64,000 bases of DNA from Pseudomonadota bacterium (GTDB lineage: Bacteria > Bdellovibrionota > FAC87 > UBA2466): assembly GCA_043767805.1 (NCBI GenBank), contig JAYUGC010000066.1, positions 5,597 to 69,596 on the forward strand, in the 5' to 3' direction. Position 1 is the stretch's first letter. Each line of letters opens with the position of its first letter. Shown here in pieces: positions 7,326 through 50,277 of this stretch. The position numbers and the translations under genes are program-made. Below the pieces are notes generated by a model that searched no databases, had not been told where the DNA came from, and saw only the letters and a program-made list of their open reading frames with translations.

Positions 7326-7500
7326 AACCAGTGCCCGGTTAATCCGTGCCTGTAGGGGTTAGATTTTCCTGACGGGCGGTAGCCACTGGCGACGCGGAAC
7401 GCTCCGTAGACTCAAAGAATACGGGCCTTTCCTGGCCGTCTTGACTCGCCTCGGCCGATCATGGTCCTCTGCCGAACGGGTACCGGCCCTCGGAGGTTCC

Positions 7501-8514
7501 ATGAAAATCCACTCCCTTCTCTTCCTTCTCAGTCTCACCCTGTCCCATGCTCTCTACGGCTGGGGCGAGCGCGGGCACCACGTGCTTTGCGAAGTCGCGA
7601 CCCGGCTCGTGGCAAACCCGGAGCTTTCCGAGTTCCTGCAGGGGCGCGGCCATCAAGCGGGCCACGTCTGCAACATCCCGGACATCTTGTGGCGTAACTT
7701 GCCCGCGCAAGACAAAGCGGGAGAGAACAGTCACTTTCTCGATCCTGAGCCGTTCGGTTACACCCTCGATACCCTTCCCCTGGTGTTCGCCGACATCGCG
7801 ACGGCGAAAGGCGTAACGAGGGCTAAACTGGCCGTCGATCTCGGTTCGCTCTGGTGGAGAGCGGATCAGTTTTTTCGCCGGGCAAAAGCGAACGCGACTG
7901 CCATTGGACTTGCGACGCTTCCCACTTCCGCGCAGCTTCAAGACAACTCGCATCCTTACAACCAAGCGGTGTATCAGTTTTTTACCGACCTCTATCTCAT
8001 GGGGCACTTCGCGGGAGACGCCTCGATGCCGTATCACAACACGTCTGACTACGACGGCTGGCAGAAAGGCCGCGGCGGCATTCATTCTTACTTCGAAAGC
8101 GCCGCGGTGACGGCGCAACCTCTGCAGCTCGCCGAGTGGGTGTACCAGGCGGCCGTTCTCCTGCGCGCGCAAAGCGGAGTCTGGACGAGCGCTACCCAGA
8201 AGATCCGCGCGGTAAGCATTCAAGCCATGCGGGAGATGCCGGAGCTCGATGCGCTCGACGTGCTCGTTAAGCCTTCGGTCGCGGCGACGAAAACCGCCGC
8301 CAAGCGGCCGCCCGTCAAAGAAAGCGCGAAACGCTTCAAGTCTCTCCTCGTCAAAGAGCTCGCCCGCTCGGCTGCTTTACTCGCCGAAATGTGGGACGCC
8401 GCTTACGAGGCCGGAGGAAAACCGAACTTGAAAGTGTACCGCAGCTATCGGTACCCGCTTATGCCCGATTACGTGCCCCTGGATTACACCGCTTCGCGGA
8501 TGGGAGAAGAATGA
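7501..8514 (+). CDS. S1/P1 family zinc-dependent nuclease, secreted
   Basis: Start at 'MKIHSLLFLLSLTL' with a GGAGG RBS ('ggaggttccATG'). The mature N-terminus 'YGWGERGHHVLCEVA' matches the S1/P1 'WG..GH' zinc-ligand signature. Later His/Asp-rich segments ('HFAGDASMPYHNTSDYDGW') fit the family. Confidence 0.75.
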   Translation: MKIHSLLFLLSLTLSHALYGWGERGHHVLCEVATRLVANPELSEFLQGRGHQAGHVCNIPDILWRNLPAQDKAGENSHFLDPEPFGYTLDTLPLVFADIATAKGVTRAKLAVDLGSLWWRADQFFRRAKANATAIGLATLPTSAQLQDNSHPYNQAVYQFFTDLYLMGHFAGDASMPYHNTSDYDGWQKGRGGIHSYFESAAVTAQPLQLAEWVYQAAVLLRAQSGVWTSATQKIRAVSIQAMREMPELDALDVLVKPSVAATKTAAKRPPVKESAKRFKSLLVKELARSAALLAEMWDAAYEAGGKPNLKVYRSYRYPLMPDYVPLDYTASRMGEE

Positions 8515-20272: not shown

Positions 20273-20440
20273 TGAGACTCCCAAGTTGTCGTTGAAGACC
20301 CGGGAATTATTGTGCCCCGAAAAAAGGGGTCGGGTCACGCAACGGAGCGAAATTCAAAAAAAGAGAGTCTTGCAAGCCTAACTTGGCGCGTCAGCCGAGT
20401 CATGTTAGGTAAGAAACCTCAACTCTCTGGAGGTTTCGGT

Positions 20441-21484
20441 ATGAAGACGGCTTTGGCGCTCCTCGCTTTACTCTGTTTCGCGGTTCCTTCTTGGGCTCAA
20501 CACGGCGGAGTCGCCGCTCAGGCCTTGGATCTCACGGCAGTCGATCAAGAGTTGCAGACGAACGGCCTCCGCGGCTGGGTCCACGGCGCGGCCCCTGAGT
20601 TCAACCAGTACGTTTTCACCTGGCGCGACCCGAACGATTTCTTTCTCCACTTCGAGTTCCCGATGATTACGTCGAACCCCGCGATAAAGGCGGAGCTCGC
20701 GAAGCTCGCCCGGCATGACGAAATCCTCATCAAGGGAAAGTTCGCGGGTCTCCAAGCGCCTGTCCGCCACATCCGGCTTTCTTCCGTCCAAGTGGTGACA
20801 AAGTTTAAGTCCGGCGTGACGGCCCCTCACTTCGTGCGCGAAGCGAAAATGCCGGCCGATCTCGAAGGCAAGACGGAGCTCATCGGCAAAGTCCACGCGG
20901 TGGTGGACGACGGCAAGATTCTCGTCATCGAGTACAAGGACGCGGTCATCCCGGTCTTCGTCTCGAACAACACTTACTCCAAAGATTTGTACCGTAATGA
21001 CAAGATCAAGCTCCACTACGTGATCCGCAAGCACCCAAACTCTCCCTCTCACGTGGAGCTCGACCCGGCGGCGGCTAATCCCATCGAAGTCATGGCCCAC
21101 ATGACTGACCTTCACGGCAAACAGGCCGGCGGTATCGACAAAGCCACCGGCAAGCCCATCGGCACCGAAGGCGTGCTGGTGATGTTCCCGAAAAGCCCGC
21201 AGATCATTTTCAACGTGTTTGCCATCCAGGAAGTGGATGCCGACGGCGTGAAAGTCGAGCACACCCTCATCAACTTCGATGACCCGGCCGTGTTCAAAGC
21301 GCTTCGCGAGAAGCTGCAGAAGATGTGGGACGCGGAAGCTTCCACCGTCGTCAATGCCCGTAATAAGTTCATCAACCCGAAAATCCGACTCCGCGTCTTC
21401 GGAGAAGGCAATATGATCGACCCCGGTCAGGCCAATCCGCAGATTTTGATTAAGAGCGAAGCGGACGTCGTTCGGCTTCCCTAG
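20441..21484 (+). CDS. secreted hypothetical protein (347 aa)
   Basis: GGAGG RBS 8 nt upstream of the ATG. Signal peptide 'MKTALALLALLCFAVPSWA'. No family recognised. It is divergent from the gene at 19802-20272. Confidence 0.5.
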   Translation: MKTALALLALLCFAVPSWAQHGGVAAQALDLTAVDQELQTNGLRGWVHGAAPEFNQYVFTWRDPNDFFLHFEFPMITSNPAIKAELAKLARHDEILIKGKFAGLQAPVRHIRLSSVQVVTKFKSGVTAPHFVREAKMPADLEGKTELIGKVHAVVDDGKILVIEYKDAVIPVFVSNNTYSKDLYRNDKIKLHYVIRKHPNSPSHVELDPAAANPIEVMAHMTDLHGKQAGGIDKATGKPIGTEGVLVMFPKSPQIIFNVFAIQEVDADGVKVEHTLINFDDPAVFKALREKLQKMWDAEASTVVNARNKFINPKIRLRVFGEGNMIDPGQANPQILIKSEADVVRLP

Positions 21485-23514
21485 TTCGCGGCGACTTCAT
21501 CGTACGGGCAAGGCATCGCCCCGCGGAAAGGCTTGGTGAGAGGCCGTCCCGCTCTGAGTAGGATGCCTCCGTCAGGCCTCCGGAGCGCTATGAACTGCGC
21601 CGGATGGGCACCCTCGCGGGCGGGGACCTCAAACTCGACGTGTCCCTCTTTCACCACGGCCTTAGTCTGGCGAATCTTTTCTCCCGGGGCCATCCGGTAG
21701 GAGAGCGATGTCTCTTTCAGCTGCTCTAGGGAAATCCGAGTGCCAAAAACTGAAGCATGCCCGTCCTGAATGGGCACGCGTAATATTTCCGACTCGGTGT
21801 TTTGCCGTGCATCGAAAACCCGGCGGCGGCTCACTCCCGTCACGGGATCCTGTTGATGCTCGAGCACAACCCGGAAAGGCACATCGTCTTTGATGTCTCT
21901 CAAGGTGTGGGCAATAACGCCGTCGATATAGTTTTGAATGATATGCGGTTTCTCTTTTTTAACCGACTTGTCGATAATGGCGTTGATGTGCTCCCAGCGC
22001 TTATTGCCGATATAGAGATCCGGCTGATTGCGGTTCCGGTTCACCGCGGCGGCCTTCATGAAAACTTGCAACCCATCTAGACTGACTCCGGCGGGTAGCG
22101 CCTCGGCGCGCAAGACTTTAAGGAACGCCTCGTAATGGACCAAAGGAATTTCGGAAGGCTTACCCGCGGCAAGCGTGGTCAGAATAGCGCCGAGATCGTA
22201 CTTTCCGCGACGAACCAGCGTTTCCCCCTTGGGCTCGATGACCTCGGGCTGTCCTTCGCTGGCCACTTTGAGCATTTCGGCGATGAGCGCTTTTCCGGCT
22301 AGCGTCTTTTGCACCACCTTCAACAGCTCCTCCGGAGCGCCCGTCAAGCGGAGCATTTCGAAGCCCAAATGATTACCGTAAGCCTCGTCGAAAAGTTCAG
22401 AGACCCGTTCCCGCGACGGAACGGCGCCGCGCAAGCTAACTGGAAGCTTCTGCGCGAAATCATCCACGATCTCGTTCAAGAGATCTCGTTTGGGGATGCT
22501 GCTGTCTCCGTTCGGCCCGTCATCCTTCAAGAGGAGAAGCCGCTGAAAATCCGGCAAGGCGGTTTGCGTGCCGTAGTCGATGAAGCCACCGTTCATCATG
22601 AAGTTCGAAGGACTCGTCGCCCCGTGATAAAAACGGCGCGCGTAGGCGGTGGCGTACGACTCGGCAGTGCGGCGAGTGAGCGTCTCCAAGCCATGCTTAA
22701 TCCGTTCTTTCTCCGAAGCCTGCTTCCCGGGCAATCCCGGCAAGGCTTTGGTGAGATTTGCGAGCGCCCCTTCGACCCGAGCTTGATCTAGAGCCAGGGC
22801 TTGCTCACCCTCCATCGAGTGATTCGATAAGAAATGAGCGGGGCGCAAAGGATCCACCCGGACGATGAGCGAGCGCTTCTCGTCCCAGCCTTCGTGCTCG
22901 GTCACGGTGCCGGTCGATAAAATCGCGACCACGCGGTTCGCTCCATGAGGCATTTCACGATGAAGCACCTCGCCCCATATTGCCTCTTGAACGCCTTCGG
23001 TGGTGCTCGCCCCTCCGTGAGCGTGCCCGCGATCTTCGACTTTGGGACCGACGTTCGGCGTAACGCCGTAACCTTTGTGCTGCACGCCTCCGCGCGAAGC
23101 CGCGCGGCCGCTGCCGAGGTTTCCGTTCAAGGCATTGCCACCGTAGCGATCGGAGAAAAATTCCATGAACTTCGCTTCGAACGTGCCCGGCGGGTCGCTC
23201 TCCCGGGGAACGGCATAAGCGAGGGCATCTAAGATTTCTTGTTCGAACTCCGGAGTCATACCGCCCGGAGGCACGTCGATGCCCATTTCTCTAAGCAGAG
23301 CATAGTTAATCCAAAGCACCCGGGCTTTGGCGAGCTTCTGGCCAGTCACTTTCACGTAGCTCTCTTCCGGCAAAATGGAGCCGAGGAGCTCGGGTGGACC
23401 TTCAGTGAGCTTGCTGATGGAATTTTCGCCAAACGCCGGCGTGTAGCCGACGGACAAAAGGCAAGCGACCAGAAAAAGGCGAATCGAACGGCCCATCAAA
23501 CGCTCCTCGAGCAA
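21481..23514 (-). CDS. SelO/YdiU (UPF0061)-like pseudokinase-fold protein with N-terminal signal peptide
   Basis: 'LFLVACLLSVGYTPAFG' is signal-like. 'NGNLGSGRAASRGGVQHKGYGVTPN' resembles the SelO Gly-rich loop plus Lys ('LGDGRA..LQLKGSGPTPY'). 'GHAHGGASTTEGVQEAIWGEVLHREMPHGANRVVAILSTG' resembles '[34 protein letters not shown]'. 'FYHGATSPSNFMMNGGFIDYG' resembles '[21 protein letters not shown]'. Confidence 0.55.
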   Translation of the reverse strand: MLEERLMGRSIRLFLVACLLSVGYTPAFGENSISKLTEGPPELLGSILPEESYVKVTGQKLAKARVLWINYALLREMGIDVPPGGMTPEFEQEILDALAYAVPRESDPPGTFEAKFMEFFSDRYGGNALNGNLGSGRAASRGGVQHKGYGVTPNVGPKVEDRGHAHGGASTTEGVQEAIWGEVLHREMPHGANRVVAILSTGTVTEHEGWDEKRSLIVRVDPLRPAHFLSNHSMEGEQALALDQARVEGALANLTKALPGLPGKQASEKERIKHGLETLTRRTAESYATAYARRFYHGATSPSNFMMNGGFIDYGTQTALPDFQRLLLLKDDGPNGDSSIPKRDLLNEIVDDFAQKLPVSLRGAVPSRERVSELFDEAYGNHLGFEMLRLTGAPEELLKVVQKTLAGKALIAEMLKVASEGQPEVIEPKGETLVRRGKYDLGAILTTLAAGKPSEIPLVHYEAFLKVLRAEALPAGVSLDGLQVFMKAAAVNRNRNQPDLYIGNKRWEHINAIIDKSVKKEKPHIIQNYIDGVIAHTLRDIKDDVPFRVVLEHQQDPVTGVSRRRVFDARQNTESEILRVPIQDGHASVFGTRISLEQLKETSLSYRMAPGEKIRQTKAVVKEGHVEFEVPAREGAHPAQFIALRRPDGGILLRAGRPLTKPFRGAMPCPYDEVAAN

Positions 23515-23668: not shown

Positions 23669-24745
23669 CTATTCGGCCGATCGGGCGTACTGGTCGGGAA
23701 ACTTCACGGCGTCCCTTTGCCCGAGAGCGCGGGCCGCATGGACGGGCCAATAGGCATCGCGCAGTTGCTGCCGGCCAAGGAGCACGAGATCGGCCTTGCC
23801 ACTCGCAATGATTTCCTCGGCTTGGGCGGGCTCGGTGATGACTCCGACCGCCGCCGTCGCGATGCCGGCGCCTTGGCGTATTCCCTCGGAGAGCGGCACT
23901 TGAAAACCAGGGCCGAACGGAATTTTGGTGATGTCGTTGCTATTGAATCCCGAGCTGCAGTCAATGAGATCGACGCCTTCCGCTTTGAGGCGCTTCGCTA
24001 GCTCGATGGAATCTTCGAGGGCCCAACCGCCAGGCGTCCAATCCGTGCAGGAAAGCCGCACGGTAAAAGGAAACTTGTCGGGCCAAACCGCCCGCATCTC
24101 GCGCGCGGTTTCCAAAACGAAACGAACGCGGTGGTCGAAACTGCCGCCGTAATTATCCGTGCGCTTATTGGAAAGAGGAGAATAGAAACTGTGCGCGAGA
24201 TAACCATGGGCGGCGTGGAGCTCTAGCCACTCATAGCCGGCTTCGAGGGAACGGACGGTCGCCTCGCGAAAGGCTTTTTTCACGTTCGCGATGTCGGCCA
24301 AAGTCATCGCGACGGGTGCGCGATCGATTCTCCCGCCGAAAACCTCCCCGGAAGGAGCGAGGGTCGACCAGCCACCTTCGGCATCTTTGAGCGATCGGCC
24401 GCCTTCCCAAGGCCGCGCCGTACTCGCTTTGCGCCCGGCATGAGCGAGCTGAATGCCGGGGACTGAGCCGTGGGCTTTGAGAAATCGTGTGATGCGAGCG
24501 AGCGGCTCGATTTGAGAGTCTTGCCAAAGGCCCGCGTCTTCGGGAGAGATCCGCCCTTCGGGCGTCACGCCCGTCGCTTCGGCGATGATAAGCGCCGCGC
24601 CGCCCACCGCGCGCGAGCCGAGGTGCACCAAGTGCCAATCGGTCGCGTGTCCGTTTTCGGAACTGTACTGACACATGGGCGAAACGCCTATGCGGTTCTT
24701 TAAGGTGACGGACTTCAATTTGAACGGATCGAATAGATGCGGCAT
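23669..24745 (-). CDS. namA: NADH:flavin oxidoreductase, Old Yellow Enzyme family (NamA/YqjM-like ene-reductase)
   Basis: 'LKNRIGVSPMCQYSSENGHATDWHLVHLGSRAVGGAALIIAEATGV' and 'GIQLAHAGRKAS' are classic OYE TIM-barrel motifs. Confidence 0.8.
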   Translation of the reverse strand: MPHLFDPFKLKSVTLKNRIGVSPMCQYSSENGHATDWHLVHLGSRAVGGAALIIAEATGVTPEGRISPEDAGLWQDSQIEPLARITRFLKAHGSVPGIQLAHAGRKASTARPWEGGRSLKDAEGGWSTLAPSGEVFGGRIDRAPVAMTLADIANVKKAFREATVRSLEAGYEWLELHAAHGYLAHSFYSPLSNKRTDNYGGSFDHRVRFVLETAREMRAVWPDKFPFTVRLSCTDWTPGGWALEDSIELAKRLKAEGVDLIDCSSGFNSNDITKIPFGPGFQVPLSEGIRQGAGIATAAVGVITEPAQAEEIIASGKADLVLLGRQQLRDAYWPVHAARALGQRDAVKFPDQYARSAE

Positions 24746-24763
24746 GGGGAAAACCTACTCCAT

Positions 24764-26050
24764 TTACTTCGGTCCGGCGAGAGACGGGCGGTGCAATTTT
24801 CCGGAGCCGGTGCGCGGAATGGATTCCTCTTTCGAGAACCCATGGGGGATGTGGTCGGGCGGTAACTCTCCCCTGAGCTTGCCGAGAGTTTCCCCCACGC
24901 TCCAATTCGCCTGGATGGGAACGACATACGCGTGAGGCACATGTCCGAGAGTGGGATGCTCTTTCGCAACGACCGCGAGGTCGGAGAAATCCCCCGTGCG
25001 CCAAAGCGCATCGGCAATGACCAGAAGGCTCACCTTGTTTCCCGCGCATTTGAAAATATCATCGAGGCGCCCACTGAGCCGCAGCCGGCCGAGCTCGTCC
25101 ATGACGCCCGTGTCGCCGCTTCGCAACCAGCCGTCCGCCGTGAAGCCTTCCCGCCCTCTTCCGTCGTAGCCCAGCATCACGGTCTTTCCCGAGAACTGGA
25201 CTTCGCTGGTCTCGGGATCGAGGCGCGCGTCGAGTCCTTCGATGGGCAGGCCGACAGAGTCCTCTATGCCACTCACCCTATCCCCGCCATTGATGAAGCC
25301 GCGGCCCGAGAGCTCGGTCATGCCGTACACGATATTGATTCTGGCTGCGGGGTGGCGGTAGCGGATCGCGCGGGCCGTCTCGGGATTCAAACGATCGCCC
25401 GAGGACAAGAGCCACCGCCACGGCCGGCTGGACTCGAGCGCCCAACGTAAGGGAAGCGGCGAAGCGCCTAGCGCGTCCACGCCGAGCCGTTCCACTTCGC
25501 GCAGGAAGGCGCCCGGAAAATAACTCCGCTCGTGCCCCAGGTAAGACGCCCCGGATTTCAGCGCGACGAGAAAATGAGAAAAGCTGCTTACGAAAGTGTA
25601 CGGAATCGGAACGAAGAGGCGGCTTCCCTCTTCCAGACCGAGGCGCGCCGCGGACGCGGTGGCATTCGAGAGAATGCCTTCGGCGGAAAGCAGCGCCCCT
25701 TTTGGCGTTCCCGTGGAGCCGGAGGTAAACCAAACGGCCGCTTCTCCTTCACTTGGGCGGCGAATGACTTTATCCACCGCCGCGCGCAAAGCGTCCGAGG
25801 GCGTAGGCGGGCAGGGGACCGGGATGGAGCCGTTCAGCCAAAGAGCTACGGTATCGATCCAGTAAGCGAGACCACGACCCGAAGAGTTCAGAACGCGCTC
25901 GCCAGGCCGGTGCTCGCGCAGCTCTCCCTTGCGCTTCAACACGGCGGACTTGAAGGCGTCTGCCGTCAGCGTTTCGTTCTCGCTCTCTAATGTGAGTTGC
26001 GGGGCCCGGTCGAGCCAGTGAAGCACGGCCTCCCCGAGAGATTTGGCCAT
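24764..26050 (-). CDS. AMP-dependent synthetase/ligase (short fatty-acyl-AMP/CoA ligase-like adenylating enzyme)
   Basis: A3 motif 'FTSGSTGTPKGA', A5 'IVYGMTE', A7 'GWLRSGDTG', and A10 Lys 'PRTGSGKLHR'. At 428 aa it is shorter than typical FAALs. Confidence 0.75.
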   Translation of the reverse strand: MAKSLGEAVLHWLDRAPQLTLESENETLTADAFKSAVLKRKGELREHRPGERVLNSSGRGLAYWIDTVALWLNGSIPVPCPPTPSDALRAAVDKVIRRPSEGEAAVWFTSGSTGTPKGALLSAEGILSNATASAARLGLEEGSRLFVPIPYTFVSSFSHFLVALKSGASYLGHERSYFPGAFLREVERLGVDALGASPLPLRWALESSRPWRWLLSSGDRLNPETARAIRYRHPAARINIVYGMTELSGRGFINGGDRVSGIEDSVGLPIEGLDARLDPETSEVQFSGKTVMLGYDGRGREGFTADGWLRSGDTGVMDELGRLRLSGRLDDIFKCAGNKVSLLVIADALWRTGDFSDLAVVAKEHPTLGHVPHAYVVPIQANWSVGETLGKLRGELPPDHIPHGFSKEESIPRTGSGKLHRPSLAGPK

Positions 26051-26117
26051 GGCAAAGATTATACACGGACTTAAGTCAGAGACACGTCCGAGCGATCCAA
26101 GTGTTAACTTGGAAAGT

Positions 26118-29100
26118 TCAGCCCGTGGACGGGAGTTTGCCGGAACGCGCGCCCGCGCCGCGCGCCACCTTCATCTCGATGCCCCGGAGCCAGAGAAAAC
26201 AGCGCCCGTTCTCGTCAAAGAGCGCAACCTCGCTCTTGACCGACGTGCCATCGGACTCGAACTGCTCGAGCCGCAGGCTCACCTTCTCGCTGGGCCGATG
26301 GGTGAAGTAGGTCAGCACGTGGGCGACCCGCACGGGCAGGCAATAATTCCCATTCCGCTCGATCTCGATGACGGCCGTCATCTGGAAGGCGGTATCGATC
26401 CACTGGATGAGCCGGCCCCAGAACGAAGCCGAGTAATCATTGGGAAAGAGATCGGCCAGGCCAAAGGTATTCAGCCGTGCGACCGCATCGCCCCGGCCAT
26501 CGATGAGAACATTCGACAAGGTTTGAAACGCGGGCCCGTGAAAGAGGCCTTGCGGCGCATAGATTTGCCGCTCTCCCACGGTCTGAGCGTTAGCAGCCTC
26601 GCGCCAAAGGGGCGGCAAGGCGGCCGTGCCTTCGGCTTCGCACGCGCGAAAGGACCCGTGATCGGAGGAAATCGTGATTTCGAGGACGCCCTGCCCTGCG
26701 CGCGCCTCCATCGAAAGATCGGCGCCCTTGTCGCCCACCACGATGGGACTTTGCGCGACGAAGTCCGCAAGCCCCACCCAGCGTTTGTGATGCAGGTAAA
26801 GCCCAGCCAAGGACATCGCAACCCCCGCCGCCGCCGGAAGGTAGGCGAGCCCTTCGATCCGGTGATCGGAGAGCATGGTATCGAACGCTGGATCAAGCCG
26901 CCGTACGTAGCGATAAACGCCACGCCCGGCGACCGAGGTCCCCAACAACTCCGGGAAGCCCGTCGCGAGCGATTGGCCATAGGCGAGCCAATCGGTGTCA
27001 TCGAAATAGAGCACCGGCCCTTCGCTTTGAAAAAGATCCTGGCGGAAAAGCTCCGCGGCTTTTTCCGGAGTGAGAAGCGAAAGCCCCTTCTGCACGAGCC
27101 CTTGGCGGATGGCGCGGTTCGCGGTCATACCCACGCCGTCCCAAGGCGGCCAGAGGAGAGAGGCCGCCGAGCCCGCGCCCCAAGCGGAGTTGAGCTCTCG
27201 GCAGAATCGATCGAGCACGGCGTTGGCCGCCGCATAGATGGTCTGACCCGGATTGCCGAACCAGGACACCACGGAAGAGAAAAAGAGAATCCGCTTTGGC
27301 GGATTGGCGGCCACCGCGCGCACCACGTGCGCCGCCGACAAAGCCTTCGCCCAAAGCTCCGAGCGGATTTCCTCGGCGGTCTTGGCTCCCAGCGCCCGGC
27401 TGACCTCGACGCCTGAAGCGTGGATCAGCAAGTCGATGCGCCCGTGTTTGTCCAAGATACGCTCGAGATAGGGCGCGACCTCTTCTTGCCTGGTCGCGTC
27501 CACGGTCTCGTAGCTCAACTCCGGATGTTTGGCCCGAAGGGTATCCAGGTGCGGCGTGATCTCGGTTTCCGACGATCGGCCGCAGAGATGCAGATGACCC
27601 ACGTGATCAAGACCGAGGAGCAAGCTTTGGGTGATGCCCTTCGCGCCGCCGATGGCCACTACCACGGCATTTGGAGGAAGACTCTGCAAGGCATCCGGAT
27701 CGGGCATGGCCTCGAGGCGAGCCACATAGCGAACGCCCTCGCGGTAGCGTACTTCCCATTCGAGGGGATCTCTCATCTCTTCGCGAATCCAACGTAACGC
27801 CTCGATCTTCGGATCGGCGTCGTCCAGACGGATGTGTTTGAAACGAATCTCGGGCGATTCCTTGCGTAAGGCTTTGAAGAAAGCGGCGATCGCTTCCGTA
27901 ATGACGCTGCCTTGGCCCATGGTCACGAACCCGATGGTCAGCTCGGCCAGCTTGGGCTCGATCCGCACAACTTCCTGCACGGCCTCGGCCGCTCTGGGAA
28001 GCCCGGTCTCAAGCCATTGATTGAGGGACCCATCCGCGGTGAGCGACAAATCGCTCACGAAGCCGGTCGCGACAAAGATCACTTGCCGCGTGCGGCAGGA
28101 AGCGAGCTGCTGACGAAACTCAGCCGCGAGCGCTTTTGGATCGAAATCGGTCAGGAAATCCGCTGGGGTCAGCGGGATCATGAGCGGGGTCGCTTCGACG
28201 GAAACTTCCCAGATGGGATCAAGCGCCTGAGGGAACCAAGCCACCCGTTTACGCTCGAAATGACCGACCTTTTCGGGCATCGCCTCGGCGCCCTTCGCGG
28301 CCGGCGCTTCGGTCTCCATGTAACCCACGAGATCTTCGACCTTCGTGAAGCGAGCGTAGTTGACCTCGCCCTCGGGCTTGAAGTTCAGGCGATCCATGAC
28401 CGAGAATAGGATTTCGGTCTTCTTGATGGAATCGATCCCCAAGTCTTCCTGGAAACGATCTTCGAGAGAGATTTCCTCGATCTGGTAGCCGGTAATCTTT
28501 CCGATGACGTCGTTGACGATGGAAAGTACGCGGCCCGCGGGCTTCTTTGCTTTGGCGGCGGCCGCTTTCTTGCGGGGGGTCTTACGGAGCAAGTCGCCCA
28601 CCCAAAGCGTTTCCTTCGCTCCGCATTCGCGCGCCAAAGCCGAGAGCAGCGAGGTGGGGCCAATCTCCATGAACTTGGTGGTGCCGCCCTCGGACATCAC
28701 GCCCATCTGCCGGATGAAATCGACGGGCTCGACCAGCTGATTTTCGAGAATGAAGAAGATGTCATCGGCTTTGAAGTTCGTGGCGTCGACTTGGCGGTGG
28801 AGCACGGAGGAAACGAAAGGAATCGCGGGAGGCGAGAAATTCCAGCTGCGGGACCGCAGGAACTTACGCATCACCGGCTTCAAGGAAAGCAGAAACGGGG
28901 AGTGATACGGCTGCGGCGTGAGAAGGCGCTTCGCCTTGACCCCTTTGTCCTTGATGAGCCGCTCGATCTCGTCCACTTCGCCCGGCGCCACGGCGATGAC
29001 CGTCTGGGTGGGGCTGTTGAAATTGGAAAGATGCACGTTGCGGCCGCGAAGGAGGACCGCCGTGCGCTCGCGGTCCGCGCCCACCGCCACTAGATAACCG

Positions 29101-29600
29101 CGCTCGTTGGCGGGCGGCGAAATCTGTTCTCGGTAGGTCACGAGAGCGAGCATTTCTTCGAATGGCACGACGCCCGCGGCGACCAGCATCGCGTACTCGC
29201 CGAAAGAATGGCTGGTCAGCACCTTCGGAAAGATCCCGCGGCACAAGAGCGAGTCGAAGAGCGCCACTTCGAGTACGAAGAGACTCAAATTCTGGATCGG
29301 TAAGAGGGAAGCCGGGTCCGCGCCTTCTTCGGCCAAAATATGAGAGGAGATCTTGGGAAGGCCGGCACTTACCACGAGCTTATCGGCCTTCTCGAAGACG
29401 CCGCGAATCTCGGGACGGTGGTACTGATCGCGGAGCATGCCCGGGTGCGCGGCGCCTTGGCCGGCAAAGAGAAATCCCCAGCTCGCCTGAGCCGTGGCGG
29501 GCTTCACTTGCAGCTGGTAGCCGCCGCCAAAGATAGACTCCGAGCGCACTTCGGCTTTCTGGTACCAGTTGAGGCCATGCAGGAAGGAAGTGCGGTTCAT
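26118..29600 (-). CDS. type I PKS / PfaA-like protein: acyltransferase - ACP - ketoreductase - PS-type dehydratase (no KS)
   Basis: True start is 'MNRTSF' at 29600, overlapping the KS gene stop (ATGA). AT domain: 'GQGAAHPGM', 'LTSHSFGEYAML' (GHSxG). ACP: 'LGIDSIKKTEIL'. KR: 'VVVAIGGAKGITQ' ... 'YAAANAVLD'. DH: 'HRIEGLAYLPAAAGVAM' (HxxxGxxxxP). The ORF-track N-terminal 28 aa are an extension. Confidence 0.85.
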   Translation of the reverse strand: MNRTSFLHGLNWYQKAEVRSESIFGGGYQLQVKPATAQASWGFLFAGQGAAHPGMLRDQYHRPEIRGVFEKADKLVVSAGLPKISSHILAEEGADPASLLPIQNLSLFVLEVALFDSLLCRGIFPKVLTSHSFGEYAMLVAAGVVPFEEMLALVTYREQISPPANERGYLVAVGADRERTAVLLRGRNVHLSNFNSPTQTVIAVAPGEVDEIERLIKDKGVKAKRLLTPQPYHSPFLLSLKPVMRKFLRSRSWNFSPPAIPFVSSVLHRQVDATNFKADDIFFILENQLVEPVDFIRQMGVMSEGGTTKFMEIGPTSLLSALARECGAKETLWVGDLLRKTPRKKAAAAKAKKPAGRVLSIVNDVIGKITGYQIEEISLEDRFQEDLGIDSIKKTEILFSVMDRLNFKPEGEVNYARFTKVEDLVGYMETEAPAAKGAEAMPEKVGHFERKRVAWFPQALDPIWEVSVEATPLMIPLTPADFLTDFDPKALAAEFRQQLASCRTRQVIFVATGFVSDLSLTADGSLNQWLETGLPRAAEAVQEVVRIEPKLAELTIGFVTMGQGSVITEAIAAFFKALRKESPEIRFKHIRLDDADPKIEALRWIREEMRDPLEWEVRYREGVRYVARLEAMPDPDALQSLPPNAVVVAIGGAKGITQSLLLGLDHVGHLHLCGRSSETEITPHLDTLRAKHPELSYETVDATRQEEVAPYLERILDKHGRIDLLIHASGVEVSRALGAKTAEEIRSELWAKALSAAHVVRAVAANPPKRILFFSSVVSWFGNPGQTIYAAANAVLDRFCRELNSAWGAGSAASLLWPPWDGVGMTANRAIRQGLVQKGLSLLTPEKAAELFRQDLFQSEGPVLYFDDTDWLAYGQSLATGFPELLGTSVAGRGVYRYVRRLDPAFDTMLSDHRIEGLAYLPAAAGVAMSLAGLYLHHKRWVGLADFVAQSPIVVGDKGADLSMEARAGQGVLEITISSDHGSFRACEAEGTAALPPLWREAANAQTVGERQIYAPQGLFHGPAFQTLSNVLIDGRGDAVARLNTFGLADLFPNDYSASFWGRLIQWIDTAFQMTAVIEIERNGNYCLPVRVAHVLTYFTHRPSEKVSLRLEQFESDGTSVKSEVALFDENGRCFLWLRGIEMKVARGAGARSGKLPSTG

Positions 29601-31648
29601 GGCTGAAAGTCGATTCCTTCCAGAGTGAACAGCGGTCCCTTGCCCACGTCCGGCACTTCTCCGGGCCGAGCGAGGAGCAGGCAATGGACTCCCGCCTTAC
29701 GAACGTCCGGCAAAGCTTCGTCGATGATGTCCTCGACTCCGATCGCCACTACGTAATCGCTCGTCTTCTGCCAGAGCTCGAGACGCGCGGCGCTCAGCGC
29801 GCAGGCAAACGAGTTCAAGTCGGCATCGACGTGGTAATTGGGGCCGTGAAAATCAAATTGATTGGCGACTCTACCGGCGATGACGTTGTCGAGCGTGCCC
29901 GGCCCGGCGTCCTCGCCGATTTTGGGATACCGTTCCCGGTGCGAGATGAGTCCTTTGAGGCCCGGCTCATCGCCTTTTCTGCCGCGCGCGAACTCCCAAT
30001 GACGAACCCGGCAATTGAGCCAGGCGTCCAGACCGAGCGAACAGGAGGAGATGACCGCCACGCGGTCGCGGGGAATCTGATCCCAATCGAGCCCCGAGCG
30101 ATCGAGCGCTTCGGACACCGCCATGAGGGTTAGTAGCTGGCTCACGTCGATCTGATTCAAGTTATTGGGCGGGATCTTAAAACCGTAGCTCGGAAAAAAA
30201 TCGAGGAAGTTCTCTCTCGGCACAAAGCTCTGCGCGAGCACCGAGACGGGCCCGACCTCGAGCTTCGGCCGCTCGGCAAGCGCGGTCGTCTGAGAAAACG
30301 TTTCCAAAAAGAGATGGTAGTTCGTCCCGCCAAAACCCGCGGAGCTTACGCCCGCTCTCAACGTACCTTCCTTCGCCATGAGAACCGGCTTCGGATTCAC
30401 GAAGACCGCGGTGGGGGCTCGTTCCTCGATGTAACTTTCGAAGTACGGGGATGGGGGTGCCGTGCGATGGGTAAGCGCAAGAATGCATTTGAGCATTCCC
30501 GCGGCGCCGGCCGCTCCCTTGGTGTGCCCGATTAAGGACTTCACGGAACCGATGGGAATCGGCGTGGGCGCGCCCTTGAAAAAAGCATCGAGGGTGTCGA
30601 TCTCGGTTGCGTCGCCGAGACGCGTGCCGGTCGCGTGGCATTCCAGAAAGTCGAGACGCGCGGGCTTGTTGTCGCCGTACGCTCGCTCCAAAGCGAGGCG
30701 CTGTCCATCGGAAGTTGGGGAAAAGAGACTGGCGCCGCGTCCATTCGAGGAACCGCCACAGCCCCGCAGGATCGCCTTTACCGGAAGCCCCGCCTTCATA
30801 GCGTCGTCTAAACGCACGAGAGCGAAGACCGCGGCGCCTTCTCCTTGATTCACGCCGTCCGTTTTATCGTCGAGCGGAAGGCAGCGGCCGTGGGACATGA
30901 GCCCCAGGCGGCTGAACAAAACGAAGTACTCGGGCGCAAGCTGTGTCTCGACACCGCCCGTGAGAGCGATGTCGCATTCCCGCGCGCGCAGTTTCTTCAT
31001 GGCGACGTCTGCCGCGGCAAGAGACGAGGCGCAAGCGGCCCCCACCAGACACCGTTCGCCGGGCATTTTGAAATGCCTTTGCAGGCGGTCGACCGCCGCC
31101 GTGTTGACGACGAGAGGAAGCGGCGTGGAGCGCTCCGCTTCTAGACGCCTAAGGGTGCTATCCAGGATGGCTCTCGCGGGAGCGCGCTCGGCGGCGGGTA
31201 ATGTCTCGATGTGCTCGAGAAGGCGCGGTCGTTCTAGGATGAGCTTGTGCTCGGAGACCTGATCGTCGGGGCCAAGGGCCCCTAGAAACCAGCCGGCTTT
31301 CCATCCCGCGCGCTTTGCCTCGGGGACCGTGGCTAGCGCCTGATGAGTCGCTTCGAGCAAAAAGACCTGAAAGCGATTCGTGTCTTTGAAATCCAGCCCA
31401 TGCGCTAAAGCGAGCCGCCGCACTTCGGTTTCGGCGACATAGGCGCCGAAAGTGGAATAAGTTTTGTCGGGATCTTCGCCGGTCTCGTCCAAATAAAGAT
31501 CTTCGGGCCAGCGATCGGCCGGAGCGCGGCGGATGGAGGGCTCGCCCGCGAGCACTCGCTTCCAAAAAGTGTCGGGGTTCGGTGAGTCCGGAAAGACGCA
31601 CCCAATTCCCACGACAGCAATATCGTCCTTATAAAGTGTATCGGGCAT
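29597..31648 (-). CDS. type I PKS ketosynthase (KS + KS-AT linker), stand-alone polypeptide
   Basis: 'DIAVVGIGCVFPDSPN', active-site Cys 'VGAACASSLAA', His motifs 'ECHATGTRLGD' and 'SLIGHTKGAAG'. About 250 aa of linker follow the KS. The gene is translationally coupled to the downstream AT-ACP-KR-DH gene. Confidence 0.85.
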   Translation of the reverse strand: MPDTLYKDDIAVVGIGCVFPDSPNPDTFWKRVLAGEPSIRRAPADRWPEDLYLDETGEDPDKTYSTFGAYVAETEVRRLALAHGLDFKDTNRFQVFLLEATHQALATVPEAKRAGWKAGWFLGALGPDDQVSEHKLILERPRLLEHIETLPAAERAPARAILDSTLRRLEAERSTPLPLVVNTAAVDRLQRHFKMPGERCLVGAACASSLAAADVAMKKLRARECDIALTGGVETQLAPEYFVLFSRLGLMSHGRCLPLDDKTDGVNQGEGAAVFALVRLDDAMKAGLPVKAILRGCGGSSNGRGASLFSPTSDGQRLALERAYGDNKPARLDFLECHATGTRLGDATEIDTLDAFFKGAPTPIPIGSVKSLIGHTKGAAGAAGMLKCILALTHRTAPPSPYFESYIEERAPTAVFVNPKPVLMAKEGTLRAGVSSAGFGGTNYHLFLETFSQTTALAERPKLEVGPVSVLAQSFVPRENFLDFFPSYGFKIPPNNLNQIDVSQLLTLMAVSEALDRSGLDWDQIPRDRVAVISSCSLGLDAWLNCRVRHWEFARGRKGDEPGLKGLISHRERYPKIGEDAGPGTLDNVIAGRVANQFDFHGPNYHVDADLNSFACALSAARLELWQKTSDYVVAIGVEDIIDEALPDVRKAGVHCLLLARPGEVPDVGKGPLFTLEGIDFQP

Positions 31649-47277: not shown

Positions 47278-48891
47278 ATGTTAAAAAGGTTTTCTCCTTG
47301 GGCCTGGGCCCTGCCAGGCCTGCTCGGAGCGCTACTTCTCGCGGTGGGATGGCCGCTAGCCTCCGATCACGATCTCTACCTCCATCTAAAGACGGGTGAG
47401 CTGACCATTGAGCGAGGCCTTCCAGGCCTAAACGACCGCTTCAGTTACACGGACCCGAGCGCCCCCGAAGAGACTCATTCCTGGCTATCCCAGGTCGTTC
47501 TCTATGAGACCTATCACTGGGGCGGAGAAACAGGCCTCCGCGCTTTGAACACGCTCTTACTCTTTTTCTTAGTGGGACTTTGCTTTCGCTTCGTTTGGCG
47601 GAGAGGAAACTCCGCGGCGGCCGCGGGCCTGACGGCGGCGTTCGTCGTGCTGGCCCAAGCGCAGGTGCAAACGTTTCGCCCCGTGGTCATCAGCCAGGCC
47701 CTTGGCGCGGTACTACTGTTCGCGATTCTCGCGCCAGAGACTCCATGGACGAAAAAAAGAGGCCTGGCCGCCGTCCTGCTCACCGCGCTTTGGGCGAATT
47801 TGCACGGCAGTAGCCTACTCGCACCGCTCTTCGTTTTTTTGAGAACGCGCCGATTCGGATGGACCATGGCCTGCGCGGCGGCTCTCCTCGTGAACCCTCG
47901 CGGCCCTGAGCTCTGGATAGATTCACTCGCCATCGTGGATCTGGGCCGCTCGCTCGCCATTGGGGAATGGGTGAGTAACGTCTATCCGCCGATTTTGTGG
48001 ATTGCTGCCGCGGGCGCTCTCTGGACTCTGCTCAAGCGAGGCAGAAACGATTGGACGGCGGTGACCGGCGCGATCCTGGTCTGCCTCGCCTTCAGCGCGC
48101 ACCGCCATTTGGCGTGGCTTTTCTTTCCGCTCTGCGCGGCCGGTGCCGCCCTCGCTTCCGGCGTCACCTTGAGAGCGAGCCCCGCGCTGCTCGGCATCGC
48201 CATCGCGCTTTGGGGAGGCCGCTTTTGGGTGAGCGGTTTGACGACGATGCCCGTCGAGCGCGCGGTAAACTTCCTTCAAGCCGCGGGACTGGAGGGCAAC
48301 GTTTTCAATCACCCGAGCTGGGGCGCCTACCTCGCCTTCCGCCTCTATCCCAAAATTAAGGTCGCTCACACCATGCGCCTACTCACTCACAAAAACATTT
48401 TTCTCTGGGAGAAAGAGCGGTGGTTCTCCCAAGGCGGCATGACGCTCGATGAGGTGACCCAGCAGTGGCCCGAGACCCAAATCGCCTTCTTACCGTCGAG
48501 CTGGCCCATTCCCCATCTGGCGGATCCCACCCAATGGGCGCCGATTTACGTGAACAACCAGGCGGTGATTCTGCTGAGGCGGACCCCCGCCAACACGGAG
48601 AACTGGAAGAAAGCCCAAAGTTACTACGCGAACCGCAAGCTTCCCTTCGAGGAAGGGCCCGGGCTGTTACCGAGACTTGTCGACGAGATCGACCCGGCCT
48701 GGATGAGAGCCCAGGAAGAAAAAGGCGGTTGGGGCAGGTGGCCCGACCCGGAGAAGCTCTCGCGCGCCTACAATGACAGCATCAACACCTGGAAGCGCTG
48801 GCTCTCGTGGAAAGGAGAGTCTTCTCCTGGAGCTCCCGAGCGCTTCTATTGGAAGCCCTCGCCTCCGCCTCAAGGAACCGCGCAGCCGTAG
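47278..48891 (+). CDS. hypothetical polytopic membrane protein (537 aa)
   Basis: Nine or more hydrophobic helices, then a hydrophilic Trp-rich C-terminus. No catalytic motif recognised. Confidence 0.5.
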   Translation: MLKRFSPWAWALPGLLGALLLAVGWPLASDHDLYLHLKTGELTIERGLPGLNDRFSYTDPSAPEETHSWLSQVVLYETYHWGGETGLRALNTLLLFFLVGLCFRFVWRRGNSAAAAGLTAAFVVLAQAQVQTFRPVVISQALGAVLLFAILAPETPWTKKRGLAAVLLTALWANLHGSSLLAPLFVFLRTRRFGWTMACAAALLVNPRGPELWIDSLAIVDLGRSLAIGEWVSNVYPPILWIAAAGALWTLLKRGRNDWTAVTGAILVCLAFSAHRHLAWLFFPLCAAGAALASGVTLRASPALLGIAIALWGGRFWVSGLTTMPVERAVNFLQAAGLEGNVFNHPSWGAYLAFRLYPKIKVAHTMRLLTHKNIFLWEKERWFSQGGMTLDEVTQQWPETQIAFLPSSWPIPHLADPTQWAPIYVNNQAVILLRRTPANTENWKKAQSYYANRKLPFEEGPGLLPRLVDEIDPAWMRAQEEKGGWGRWPDPEKLSRAYNDSINTWKRWLSWKGESSPGAPERFYWKPSPPPQGTAQP

Positions 48892-50201: not shown

Positions 50202-50277
50202 GGTGAATCCCCCAGCTCTAACCATAGCACGAGGGAAAAGTTTGCCCCGAGGGCGCTCGTTTTGCCGTTAATGGCGG

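Follow-up and report, generated by a model that had tools for sequence, protein, structure and literature searches.

A minus-strand open reading frame in a 64,000-nucleotide stretch of Bdellovibrionota DNA (the window) encodes a predicted Sec-exported protein whose closest characterised relative, by sequence comparison, is MchC/MceJ, a remote branch of the SelO superfamily that takes part in microcin maturation. On balance, we believe that the protein is a catalytically competent member of this branch which would transfer an NMP (AMP) moiety and likely functions as an effector outside the cytoplasm of the producing cell. What is new is the exported clade itself, which is large and unstudied. 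To our knowledge, all characterised SelO-superfamily enzymes (SelO, YdiU, Fmp40, and MchC/MceJ) reside in the cytoplasm or the mitochondrial matrix, with ATP, UTP, and NAD+ at hand. The combination of an intact nucleotide/metal site with adaptation to export is paradoxical, raising the questions of where the nucleotide comes from and which target is modified. These questions also connect two lively areas of research: the unusual chemistry of kinase folds (AMPylation, glutamylation, and NAD+ hydrolysis) and the poorly charted effectors with which predatory bacteria are armed.

The open reading frame reported in the initial annotation at 21481..23514 is present on the minus strand and encodes 677 residues from a TTG codon. 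The start is almost certainly ATG 23496, which lies 6 nt downstream of a Shine-Dalgarno sequence, GAGGAG (23503..23508, minus strand, read from the sequence). The coding sequence of this exported MchC-like SelO-superfamily protein (21481..23496, minus strand; maximal ORF to TTG 23514) contains 671 codons and a stop, and its product, beginning MGRSIRL, is identical to database protein P0001. Residue numbers used here (K147, S303, D313, Cys669, etc.) follow the 677-aa ORF with the TTG start. In this numbering, all motifs quoted earlier were located: LGSGRAAS...VQHKGYGVTPN at residues 133–154, HGATSPSN at 297–304, and IDYG at 312–315.

Residues ∼50–540 (21895..23367, minus strand) form a SelO/MchC-type protein-kinase-like domain with a helical C-lobe extension, as delineated by AF2, Foldseek, and an hhalign alignment to MchC that covers residues 51–534 of the window protein. 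The AF2 model has a pLDDT of 91.6. Its only significant Foldseek matches are SelO/YdiU structures (6eac, 6iii, 6k20, 6lna, and 9jym; E of 7e-15 to 3e-13, target-normalised TM of 0.63–0.68), and the next matches have E>0.01. The SelO fold proposed earlier is thus borne out by the predicted structure, and the profile and hhalign searches agree. The SelO similarity is weak on the single sequence, but nevertheless real. The window protein scores 17.4 bits against the PF02696 gathering score of 22.8 (E=0.002) and 18.4 bits against the threshold of 431 for the NCBIfam YdiU model NF000658, whereas the family profile matches every SelO/YdiU crystal structure at E∼1e-8 and aligns with E. coli SelO at 96% hhalign probability (E=3e-9, 248 columns).

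The window protein resembles SelO/YdiU in its kinase-like fold with helical extension, its phosphate and metal ligands, and a Cys near the C-terminus that is suspected to be functional. Identity is only ∼16–18%, and Cys272, a partner in a regulatory disulfide of SelO/YdiU, is missing. The window protein carries a predicted export signal, whereas SelO/YdiU proteins are cytoplasmic or mitochondrial. The HGVMNTDN loop of SelO/YdiU reads HGATSPSN, with loss of Asn244 and Asp246, and the tail Cys does not occupy the position of the C-terminal Cxx>/Uxx> motif (Cxx> as defined in PMC3281104). Assignment to SelO/YdiU proper was rejected given the missed Pfam and NCBIfam thresholds, the absence of HGVMNTDN and Cxx>, and the export signal.

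As an identity, SelO/YdiU gives way to MchC, to which the family is far nearer. The family profile aligns with E. coli MchC at 99.94% hhalign probability over 458 columns (E=3.3e-37, versus 3e-9 for SelO), BLASTP gives 35% identity to MchC over the catalytic core (E=3e-29), and tblastn with MchC found matches in all homolog loci searched. These comparisons indicate that the window protein is not a degenerate SelO/YdiU. The 'mchC' proteins have been described as a remote subfamily within the SelO superfamily (Dudkiewicz et al. 2012). MchC and MceJ are maturation proteins of microcins H47 and E492 that act on the C-terminal Ser carboxylate of the microcins; each forms an active complex with a HlyC-type acyltransferase, MchD/MceI, and what MchC/MceJ itself contributes has been described as unknown (PMC7472721). 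MchC and the window protein have in common the S-x-S-N loop (LTTSPSN...MDFNG in MchC), an H-x-[N/D/H]-G insertion, and the full set of K/E/R/R/N/D ligands. They differ in that MchC has many Cys but no signal peptide, Cys tail, or β-sandwich, the opposite of the window protein, and in that MchC always adjoins MchD and microcin genes, which the window protein and its clade lack.

The same branch includes cytoplasmic MchC-like proteins from Pseudomonas, Burkholderia, and Paraburkholderia (∼570 aa, annotated 'hypothetical protein'), whose invariant residues are identical and whose loop, H-[YF]-N-V-S-A-S-N, is similar; they differ in lacking a signal peptide and Cys tail, in being Cys-rich, and in their taxonomic range. 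In an NJ tree, the exported clade forms a monophyletic group separate from MchC; it appears to be sister to these cytoplasmic proteins and, in this sampling, confined to Bdellovibrionota. Of 21 GTDB-species loci, 18 are named after Bdellovibrionota lineages, one has the legacy name 'Deltaproteobacteria', and two come from a single 'WWE3' bin. For the SufB encoded in the window, the best matches with a name are MAGs of Oligoflexia and Bdellovibrionota. At E≤1e-30, the exported clade falls into 1,154 or more clusters (50% identity), and in both size and diversity the MchC-type branch goes far beyond the ∼20 proteins of the 2012 description. Pfam and NCBIfam both lack a model for this branch, so its proteins are annotated as 'hypothetical' or tagged, weakly and misleadingly, as YdiU.

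Active-site conservation was counted in 169 diverse exported-clade relatives, with 117 cytoplasmic MchC-like proteins for comparison. The Gly-rich segment with the catalytic Lys, YGGNALNGNLGSGRAASRGGVQHK (23074..23145, minus strand), contains Y124, R137, and K147, aligned with Y71, R87, and K107 of E. coli SelO. The branch-specific H-x-[H/N/D]-G insertion (H164, H166, and G167) and αC E177, the counterpart of E130, lie at 22984..23025 (minus strand). VRVDPLRPAH (22834..22860, minus strand) aligns R219 and R224 with R170 and R177, and also contains H227. In the catalytic loop/metal motif HGATSPSNFMMNGGFIDYG (22570..22626, minus strand), S301 and S303 replace N244 and D246, and N304 and D313 match the metal ligands N247 and D256. 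The six residues K147, E177, R219, R224, N304, and D313, aligned with E. coli K107, E130, R170, R177, N247, and D256, are 91–100% conserved in the 169 relatives: K147, R224, N304, and D313 in every one, R219 in 164, and E177 in 154 (with Asp in a further 14). R137 is found in 167 and H164 in 162. In the cytoplasmic set, R137, K147, R219, R224, S303, N304, and D313 are all 100% conserved, E177 is present in 117/117, and H164 in 101/117 (86%). In SelO, the two Arg corresponding to R170 and R177 bind the buried γ-phosphate (PMC8097203).

Such near-invariance of the SelO nucleotide and metal ligands makes a pseudoenzyme unlikely. The initial annotation had left room for one. On such a reading, the protein would be a binding protein or its kinase-like fold would serve as a non-catalytic scaffold or sensor of nucleotides. 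Pseudoenzymes are common among kinase-like proteins, and the Asp proposed as the YdiU general base is missing here. However, N304, D313, K147, R219, and R224 are essentially invariant among relatives that average ∼30% mutual identity, R137 and E177 are nearly so, and MchC, a protein that genetics shows to be needed for a covalent modification, has the same loop. The nucleotide/metal site counterparts are intact, and a non-catalytic role is highly improbable.

The replacement of an acidic residue in the catalytic loop, noted earlier, is confirmed by alignment: E. coli Asp246 falls on Ser303, and Asn244 on Ser301. Position 303 is Ser in 164/169 relatives and Asp or Glu in none. The altered loop is not an idiosyncrasy of the window protein, however, as S-x-S-N is the signature of the whole MchC-like branch, including the 117 cytoplasmic members (S303 100%, S301 97%). 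The original reading of the protein as a SelO/YdiU-type AMPylase or UMPylase with a modified site, acting on Ser, Thr, Tyr, or His of periplasmic or extracellular proteins, is consistent with its fold and its SelO/YdiU-like nucleotide and metal ligands, and SelO-family enzymes are known to NMPylate proteins (PMC8097203; bioRxiv 10.1101/692707). It is nonetheless quite unlikely. MchC is far closer than SelO, the SelO/YdiU models of Pfam and NCBIfam fall short of their thresholds, and both Asp246 and Asn244 are gone; in YdiU, D246 is the proposed general base, and its mutation abolishes self-AMPylation/NMPylation (bioRxiv 10.1101/692707). Such a reaction would moreover depend on ATP in the periplasm, for which no source is known.

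The N-terminus bears a predicted Sec-type signal peptide, MGRSIRLFLVACLLSVGYTPAFG (23428..23496, minus strand), recognised by hydropathy and a cleavage-site heuristic. Its n-region is MGRSIR, its h-region LFLVACLLSVGY, and its c-region TPAFG with cleavage before the following E, which places A-F-G at -3 to -1 with small residues at -3 and -1. This agrees with the SPase I pattern of a positively charged n-region, a hydrophobic core of 7–15 residues, and small residues at -3/-1. Its maximum N-terminal hydropathy is 2.90, compared with 1.13 for E. coli SelO, which has no signal peptide. The secretion signal claimed in the initial annotation is therefore upheld as a prediction, and by the same heuristic the n-h-c layout recurs in 36 or more of the 41 nearest homologs. 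The search for further signal-bearing relatives suggested there was also fruitful: by the simpler criterion of a hydrophobic N-terminal window, 141/169 clade representatives score positive, against 7/117 cytoplasmic MchC-like proteins. AXA-type cleavage sites are kept across clade homologs. Export also predicts a loss of Cys relative to cytoplasmic relatives, and the ∼8-fold depletion found (0.28 Cys per 100 aa in the exported clade versus 2.2 in the cytoplasmic proteins) corroborates the heuristic.

The protein is accordingly predicted to be Sec-exported. It might instead stay inside the cell, if the hydrophobic N-terminus were an artefact of start choice or an anchor leaving the domain cytoplasmic; the export call is heuristic, and an L-V-A-C sequence in the window protein superficially resembles a lipobox ([LVI][ASTVI][GAS]C), with five hydrophobic residues before it when counted from the true start and a lipobox-like Cys in 3/41 homologs. 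Against a cytoplasmic location, the start backed by the Shine-Dalgarno sequence yields a textbook n-h-c peptide that is conserved clade-wide with its AXA-type sites. The positive charges ahead of the h-region predict an N-in/C-out topology even without cleavage. Together with the Cys depletion, these features render a cytoplasmic location extremely improbable.

Beyond the kinase-like core, the window protein has an extra C-terminal β-sandwich (residues 548–655; 21550..21873, minus strand), which SelO, MchC, and the clade's short forms (∼560 aa) lack. It is followed by a disordered tail (21484..21549, minus strand; pLDDT <50 for residues 658–677) that contains Cys669 (codon 21508–21510). The ORF has Cys only at positions 18 and 669, and Cys669 is the sole Cys of the mature protein. 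A tail Cys is found in 144/169 relatives, versus 2.8% expected by chance, and lies 9 residues from the end in the window protein and 5–20 residues across the clade. The clade tail motif is C-x-x-hydrophobic-[F/L], from which the window tail CPYDEVAAN departs. This lone conserved Cys probably takes part in the mechanism or its control.

One possible role for the Cys is catalytic, in a nucleotide pyrophosphatase that would use water as acceptor to split NAD+ or NTPs into NMPs, starving the target of cofactors or harvesting the NMPs. Bdellovibrio takes up nucleoside monophosphates of its prey, which fits such an activity. The clade retains the tail Cys while lacking Asp246, the proposed general base, mutation of which abolishes YdiU NMPylation, and YdiU-NAD structures exist. 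Canonical SelO has been reported to hydrolyse NAD+ to NMN and AMP, a reaction for which its C-terminal Cys/Sec is essential, whereas AMPylation can dispense with it (PMC13391479; PMC13443136). On the other hand, the tail Cys stands 5–20 residues from the end in a motif other than the SelO Cxx>, and the sister group of cytoplasmic MchC-like proteins has no such Cys, so it is not simply inherited. In fusion proteins of the clade, it is still at the extreme C-terminus behind ∼550 extra residues, from where its access to the active site is harder to picture. The K/R/R γ-phosphate pocket, being strictly conserved, would also favour NTP over NAD+. We consider a pyrophosphatase unlikely.

The genes around the window protein encode an OYE reductase, an AMP-binding enzyme, PKS modules, and unknown exported proteins; no neighbour is conserved beside clade members across the compared loci. 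Of the secreted hydrolases listed previously, an S8 subtilase and an α/β hydrolase, each with a hydrophobic leader at the N-terminus, were recovered, but the S1/P1 nuclease match is weak and sub-threshold; membership of the protein in an exported effector repertoire is plausible. The mch cluster of CFT073, in contrast, is a siderophore-microcin setting with precursor, immunity, IroB-like glycosyltransferase, and ABC exporter genes. Microcin precursor, glycosyltransferase, and exporter genes are not conserved near the clade loci, and tblastn (E≤10) found nothing in the window or homolog loci with the potential to encode an MchD-like protein, the one exception being a spurious match. A single tblastn match to MchD at E=0.008 is antisense within another gene. 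These surroundings bear on the idea that the protein matures the producer's own products in the periplasm or at the surface by modifying the C-terminus of a peptide or protein. Homology to MchC/MceJ, with their microcin Ser carboxylate substrate, speaks for such a self-directed role, but the dedicated partner genes are not conserved nearby and the periplasm has no known source of energy, making it very unlikely.

In the mechanism we favour, the mature protein would bind NTP-Mg/Mn in the SelO orientation, K147, E177, R219, and R224 holding the buried γ-phosphate and N304 and D313 the divalent metal. The NMP (AMP) moiety would then pass to an acceptor able to do without the Asp246 general base of SelO/YdiU. 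Since MchC/MceJ helps to esterify a peptide's C-terminal carboxylate, the acceptor may by analogy be a carboxylate or another pre-activated group; the reaction ascribed to this branch is the ATP-dependent joining of such a carboxylate to a glycosylated siderophore, and Nolan and Walsh reportedly found that MceIJ needs ATP. The reaction would take place beyond the producer's cytoplasm. We know of no ATP or other energy source in the periplasm, and an extracytoplasmic compartment without its own ATP makes a target cell, a prey cell, or material derived from prey the likeliest site. The substrates are thus probably in prey or target cells, and the protein would act as an exported effector, not as a regulator with housekeeping duties. 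Not every member of the Oligoflexia is a known predator. A conceptual parallel is Legionella SidJ, reportedly a secreted kinase-fold glutamylase that works via an acyl-adenylate. SidJ-type effectors resemble the window protein only in concept (a kinase-like fold and ATP-dependent adenylylation in the target cell); no specific sequence or structure relationship was detected, and they use dedicated secretion systems, whereas the window protein has a Sec signal peptide.

A bolder and rather doubtful proposal is that the clade represents a new class of Sec-exported Bdellovibrionota toxins against prey or competitors, acting by flipped-ATP adenylylation or by destruction of nucleotide pools under a Cys redox or covalent switch. 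The switch would silence the enzyme in the oxidising, ATP-free periplasm and license it in the reducing, ATP-rich cytoplasm of a target. If true, the SelO/MchC fold would for the first time be seen in extracytoplasmic or trans-kingdom-style use, and bacterial predation would gain a new class of weapon. For the favoured effector reading, a hint comes from three of about 170 sampled clade members (P0060, P0068, and P0076), which are fused to DUF7790 and a Zeta_toxin P-loop kinase domain (PF06414; E∼1e-17), because an ATP-dependent toxin-type domain is useful only where ATP exists. A Pfam search found no Zeta_toxin domain in the window protein, and no immunity gene was seen beside the fusions. 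Both fusions with intact N-termini have kept the signal peptide.

The gene under study occupies a maximal open reading frame at 21481..23514 (−), which encodes 677 aa from a TTG codon and contains all of the motifs quoted for it in the initial annotation. An ATG at 23496, 18 bases 3′ of the TTG, is preceded in the sequence by GAGGAG with a 6-nt spacer. The product initiated there (671 aa, beginning MGRSIRL) is identical to P0001, a protein predicted on an NCBI contig of 70 kb, and translation was taken to begin at this ATG. Residues are numbered on the 677-aa ORF on which the tools were run; subtracting 6 gives the position in the true protein.

The window protein scores below the cut-offs of the existing family models. 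Pfam SelO (PF02696) covers residues 49–324 with 17.4 bits against a gathering score of 22.8 (E=0.002), and NCBIfam YdiU gives 18 bits against a cut-off of 431. A family profile was required, since a phmmer search of PDB sequences with the window protein alone returned no relevant match. The profile built from A1, an alignment of 41 homologs, recognised the sequences of all four SelO/YdiU crystal structures (E=1e-8 to 1e-6), the motifs lining up in register, and hhalign matched E. coli K-12 SelO with a probability of 96% (E=3e-9). An AlphaFold2 model of the window protein (pLDDT 91.6, pTM 0.90) was compared with known structures by Foldseek. Significant matches were to SelO/YdiU only (E 7e-15 to 3e-13, target-normalised TM 0.63–0.68 over ∼530–560 alignment columns); ordinary protein kinases ranked next, at E>0.01. 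Profile, hhalign, model and Foldseek together make homology to SelO secure and establish the fold. The earlier description as SelO-like therefore stands at the level of homology, whereas the type is a different one.

MchC and MceJ, maturation proteins of microcins H47 and E492, are a remote subfamily of SelO in which the 'HGV' loop varies (Dudkiewicz et al., PMC3281104). MchC was taken from the mch cluster of E. coli CFT073, where its gene adjoins that of a HlyC-family acyltransferase. The family profile aligned with MchC in hhalign at 99.94% probability (E=3.3e-37, 458 columns), pairing window residues 51–534 with MchC 12–495, and BLASTP of the window protein against MchC gave E=3e-29 with 35% identity over 242 residues. 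Judged by sequence, the window protein is of the MchC/MceJ type and not of the SelO/YdiU type. The MchC loop LTTSPSN…DGRLMDFNG was counted as the same loop as HGATSPSN…GGFIDYG of the window protein, and an H-S-N-G insertion is common to both. Y124, G125, G134, R137, K147, G167, E177, R219, R224, H227, S303, N304 and D313 are 100% conserved among 117 cytoplasmic MchC-like proteins sampled from Enterobacterales, Pseudomonas, Burkholderia and other groups, with S301 at 97% and H164 at 86%. The initial annotation had singled out an altered catalytic loop in which the acidic residue is replaced. The replacement is real, the equivalent of Asp246 being S303, but it is not peculiar to the window protein: given the same loop in MchC and its conservation across the 117 cytoplasmic proteins, it marks a whole branch that is evidently functional.

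Neither Pfam nor NCBIfam contains a model that recognises MchC, which accounts for the weak 'SelO' tags; Pfam SelO scored nothing against MchC at E≤1. In RefSeq, MchC of E. coli CFT073 (L024:27321–28871) is labelled only 'hypothetical protein', which leaves a genetically characterised gene without a functional annotation. P0253–P0289, from the cultured Proteobacteria Pseudomonas, Burkholderia, Paraburkholderia and Azospirillum, are likewise uncharacterised cytoplasmic MchC-like 'hypothetical proteins' of ∼560–590 aa. Their loop reads H-[YF]-N-V-S-A-S-N, and no Pfam or NCBIfam model covers them.

The active site was mapped onto E. coli SelO, whose residue numbers were checked on the translated gene. 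Tyr71, Arg87, Lys107, Glu130, Arg170, Arg177, His240, Asn247 and Asp256 correspond to the identical residues Y124, R137, K147, E177, R219, R224, H297, N304 and D313 of the window protein; Asp119, Asn244 and Asp246 correspond to H166, S301 and S303. The K, E, R and R equivalents of P. syringae SelO grip the buried γ-phosphate of ATP in its flipped orientation; those of N and D are metal ligands (PMC8097203). These positions were followed through 169 representatives of the exported clade, which comprises the window protein and its relatives. K147, R224, N304 and D313 are each present in 169/169, R137 in 167 and R219 in 164; E177 is kept in 154 and is Asp in another 14. Position 303 is Ser in 164 representatives, Ala in 3 and Thr in 2, and is never acidic. 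As mean identity among the members is ∼30%, the invariance of the ligands indicates selection on what would be a working nucleotide/metal site whose acceptor side has been remodelled, as opposed to an inactive enzyme. A pseudoenzyme, initially offered as one outcome for an exported protein with a modified active site, could accommodate the substitution at position 303 and is not favoured by near-invariant nucleotide and metal ligands.

The mature enzyme would bind NTP-Mg/Mn in the SelO orientation and transfer NMP, releasing PPi. Asp246 is the proposed general base of E. coli YdiU, and its mutation abolishes self-AMPylation; Asn244 contacts the AMP phosphate (bioRxiv 10.1101/692707). The only studied members of the MchC branch help to esterify a peptide C-terminal Ser carboxylate (PMC7472721, PMC3281104). 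Because of this role and of the replacement of Asp246 throughout the branch, the acceptor is likely to be a carboxylate or some other group that can react without a general base. The branch-specific His164 may act as the base instead of Asp246. A rival reading, in which the enzyme NMPylates proteins as SelO does, would agree with the secure homology and the shared nucleotide ligands; it would have to operate without the acidic residue on which YdiU self-AMPylation depends.

The predicted N-terminal secretion signal reported initially was borne out. The n-region MGRSIR, the h-region LFLVACLLSVGY and the c-region TPAFG, followed by E, read as a textbook signal peptide. At least 36 of the 41 nearest homologs share this n–h–c layout with AXA-type sites; the rest are N-terminally truncated or weak in the h-region. 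By the simpler criterion of a hydrophobic N-terminal window, 141/169 exported-clade representatives are positive versus 7/117 cytoplasmic MchC-like proteins, and E. coli SelO is negative. Past residue 35, the exported clade contains 0.28 Cys per 100 aa versus 2.2 in the cytoplasmic relatives, an 8-fold depletion of the kind that an oxidising periplasm or exterior would select. The rival view that the protein is not exported is opposed by both the conserved layout and the Cys depletion. Lipoprotein processing at L-V-A-C was considered unlikely, given the shortness of the h-region and the lack of conservation of this motif.

Almost every member of the exported clade ends in a disordered tail with a Cys. 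A Cys lies within the last 20 residues in 144/169 representatives, versus 2.8% expected from the body Cys frequency of 0.14%, and 106 of these 144 have no other Cys in the mature protein. The surrounding residues follow the pattern C-x-x-[L/A/V/I]-[F/L], matched strictly in 93/144 and with a hydrophobic residue at +4 in 123/144. The motif stays at the extreme C-terminus of members with appended domains and is absent from the cytoplasmic MchC-like proteins (3/117). The window protein contains only Cys18, within the signal peptide, and Cys669, and its tail CPYDEVAAN departs from the clade context at +3 and +4. The C-terminal Cys/Sec of canonical SelO pairs with Cys272 in a regulatory disulfide (PMC8097203); it has recently been reported to be essential for NAD+ hydrolase activity and dispensable for AMPylation (PMC13391479, PMC13443136). 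An NAD+/NTP pyrophosphatase using the tail Cys is thus a rival activity for the clade. However, the window protein lacks the Cys272 partner and its tail Cys sits at a different position, so the parallel is held as a lead, not as homology. Elsewhere in the window, an IPT/TIG-domain protein (55–1305, +) ends in GCWCSR, a Cys terminus of another kind than the C-x-x-hydrophobic-F tail.

In three members (P0060, P0068 and P0076), the module is joined to DUF7790 and to a P-loop kinase domain of the Zeta_toxin family, the latter above the Pfam threshold (E 1e-17 to 5e-9; genes at L025:2484–5924 and L026:6001–9324 among them). The predicted signal peptide is kept in both fusions with intact N-termini, and the terminal Cys tail in 3/3. 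Their neighbours are housekeeping genes (obg, rsfS, nadD-like, L27), with no immunity gene or antitoxin evident beside them. Because an exported toxin-type kinase that depends on ATP can be of use only where ATP is found, these fusions are the chief argument, an indirect one, for the clade acting in or on another cell. MceIJ reportedly requires ATP. The periplasm is not known to contain ATP, and the likeliest theatre would therefore be a prey or competitor cell or the material that leaks from it. A self-directed maturation enzyme in the periplasm would accord with the signal peptide and with the maturation role of MchC and MceJ; it would have to work where no ATP source is known. Two other members differ in architecture: P0042 (1384 aa) carries the whole exported module duplicated in tandem in one polypeptide, and P0120 (1076 aa) is fused to an ATP-grasp/L-amino-acid-ligase-like domain and has no signal peptide.

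The gene stands alone. All-vs-all BLAST of ORFs from 22 loci and the window found no neighbour common to three or more loci, which makes operon-based inference impossible. The window and the other loci searched contain none of the genes that typically accompany MchC (MchD/MceI acyltransferase, microcin precursor, exporter), and tblastn for the HlyC-type partner MchD in the window and homolog loci gave nothing credible. The lone MchD-like match (E=0.008, L014) lies antisense inside a 490-aa gene and was rejected. An OYE flavin reductase (23669–24745, −) is encoded directly upstream on this strand, and beyond it come an AMP-binding enzyme (24764–26050, −), a PKS-type AT-ACP-KR-DH protein (26118–29684, −) and a PKS-type KS protein (29597–31648, −). 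With short gaps between them, these genes (23669–31648, −) look like a small PKS or PUFA-like cluster, whose adjacency to the MchC-like gene is not kept at other loci. Downstream, a convergent gene (20312–21484, +; ∼347 aa) overlaps the MchC-like stop codon by 4 nt; its product has its own predicted signal peptide, MKTALALLALLCFAVPSWAQ, matches no Pfam family and is not conserved beside homologs. Promoter and terminator sites around the gene were no commoner than in shuffled sequence.

The initial annotation named secreted hydrolases elsewhere in the window, which does encode an S8 subtilase (48870–50225, −) and an adjoining α/β hydrolase of the Hydrolase_4/lysophospholipase type (50278–51459, −), each with an N-terminal hydrophobic leader. 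The S1/P1 nuclease-like ORF (7441–8514, +) also has a hydrophobic leader but scores 22.1 bits against a gathering score of 29.5, and is not firmly established. The three fit the initial impression of a secretion-rich genome, and the subtilase and α/β hydrolase are consistent with a secreted hydrolase repertoire.

At E≤1e-30, the A1 profile recovered 1,154 clusters (50% identity) from 1.84 billion representatives. A neighbour-joining tree of 35 exported and 35 cytoplasmic MchC-like proteins, rooted with E. coli SelO, separates the two sets as clean sister groups. Full-text literature searches found no paper tying Bdellovibrio to SelO, YdiU or MchC and no description of an exported SelO-family enzyme. 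The clade is exported, carries a Cys tail, has no partner gene and is the sister of MchC in the SelO superfamily. Its fold, branch and catalytic residues can each be recognised, so it does not form a new category; it goes beyond a routine new member, because its compartment, partner set, taxonomic range and tail are unlike those of every characterised relative.

Among GTDB species genomes, 21 loci were recovered, 18 under Bdellovibrionota-lineage names and 1 under the legacy label 'Deltaproteobacteria'. The best named relatives of the window SufB are Oligoflexia and Bdellovibrionota MAGs (∼82% identity). The remaining two loci, L003 and L008, come from JBBRLF01, a 'candidate division WWE3' (Patescibacteria) bin (La1_concoct.242) that is most likely a mis-binned Bdellovibrionota contig set; they represent two paralogous exported-clade copies in one bin.
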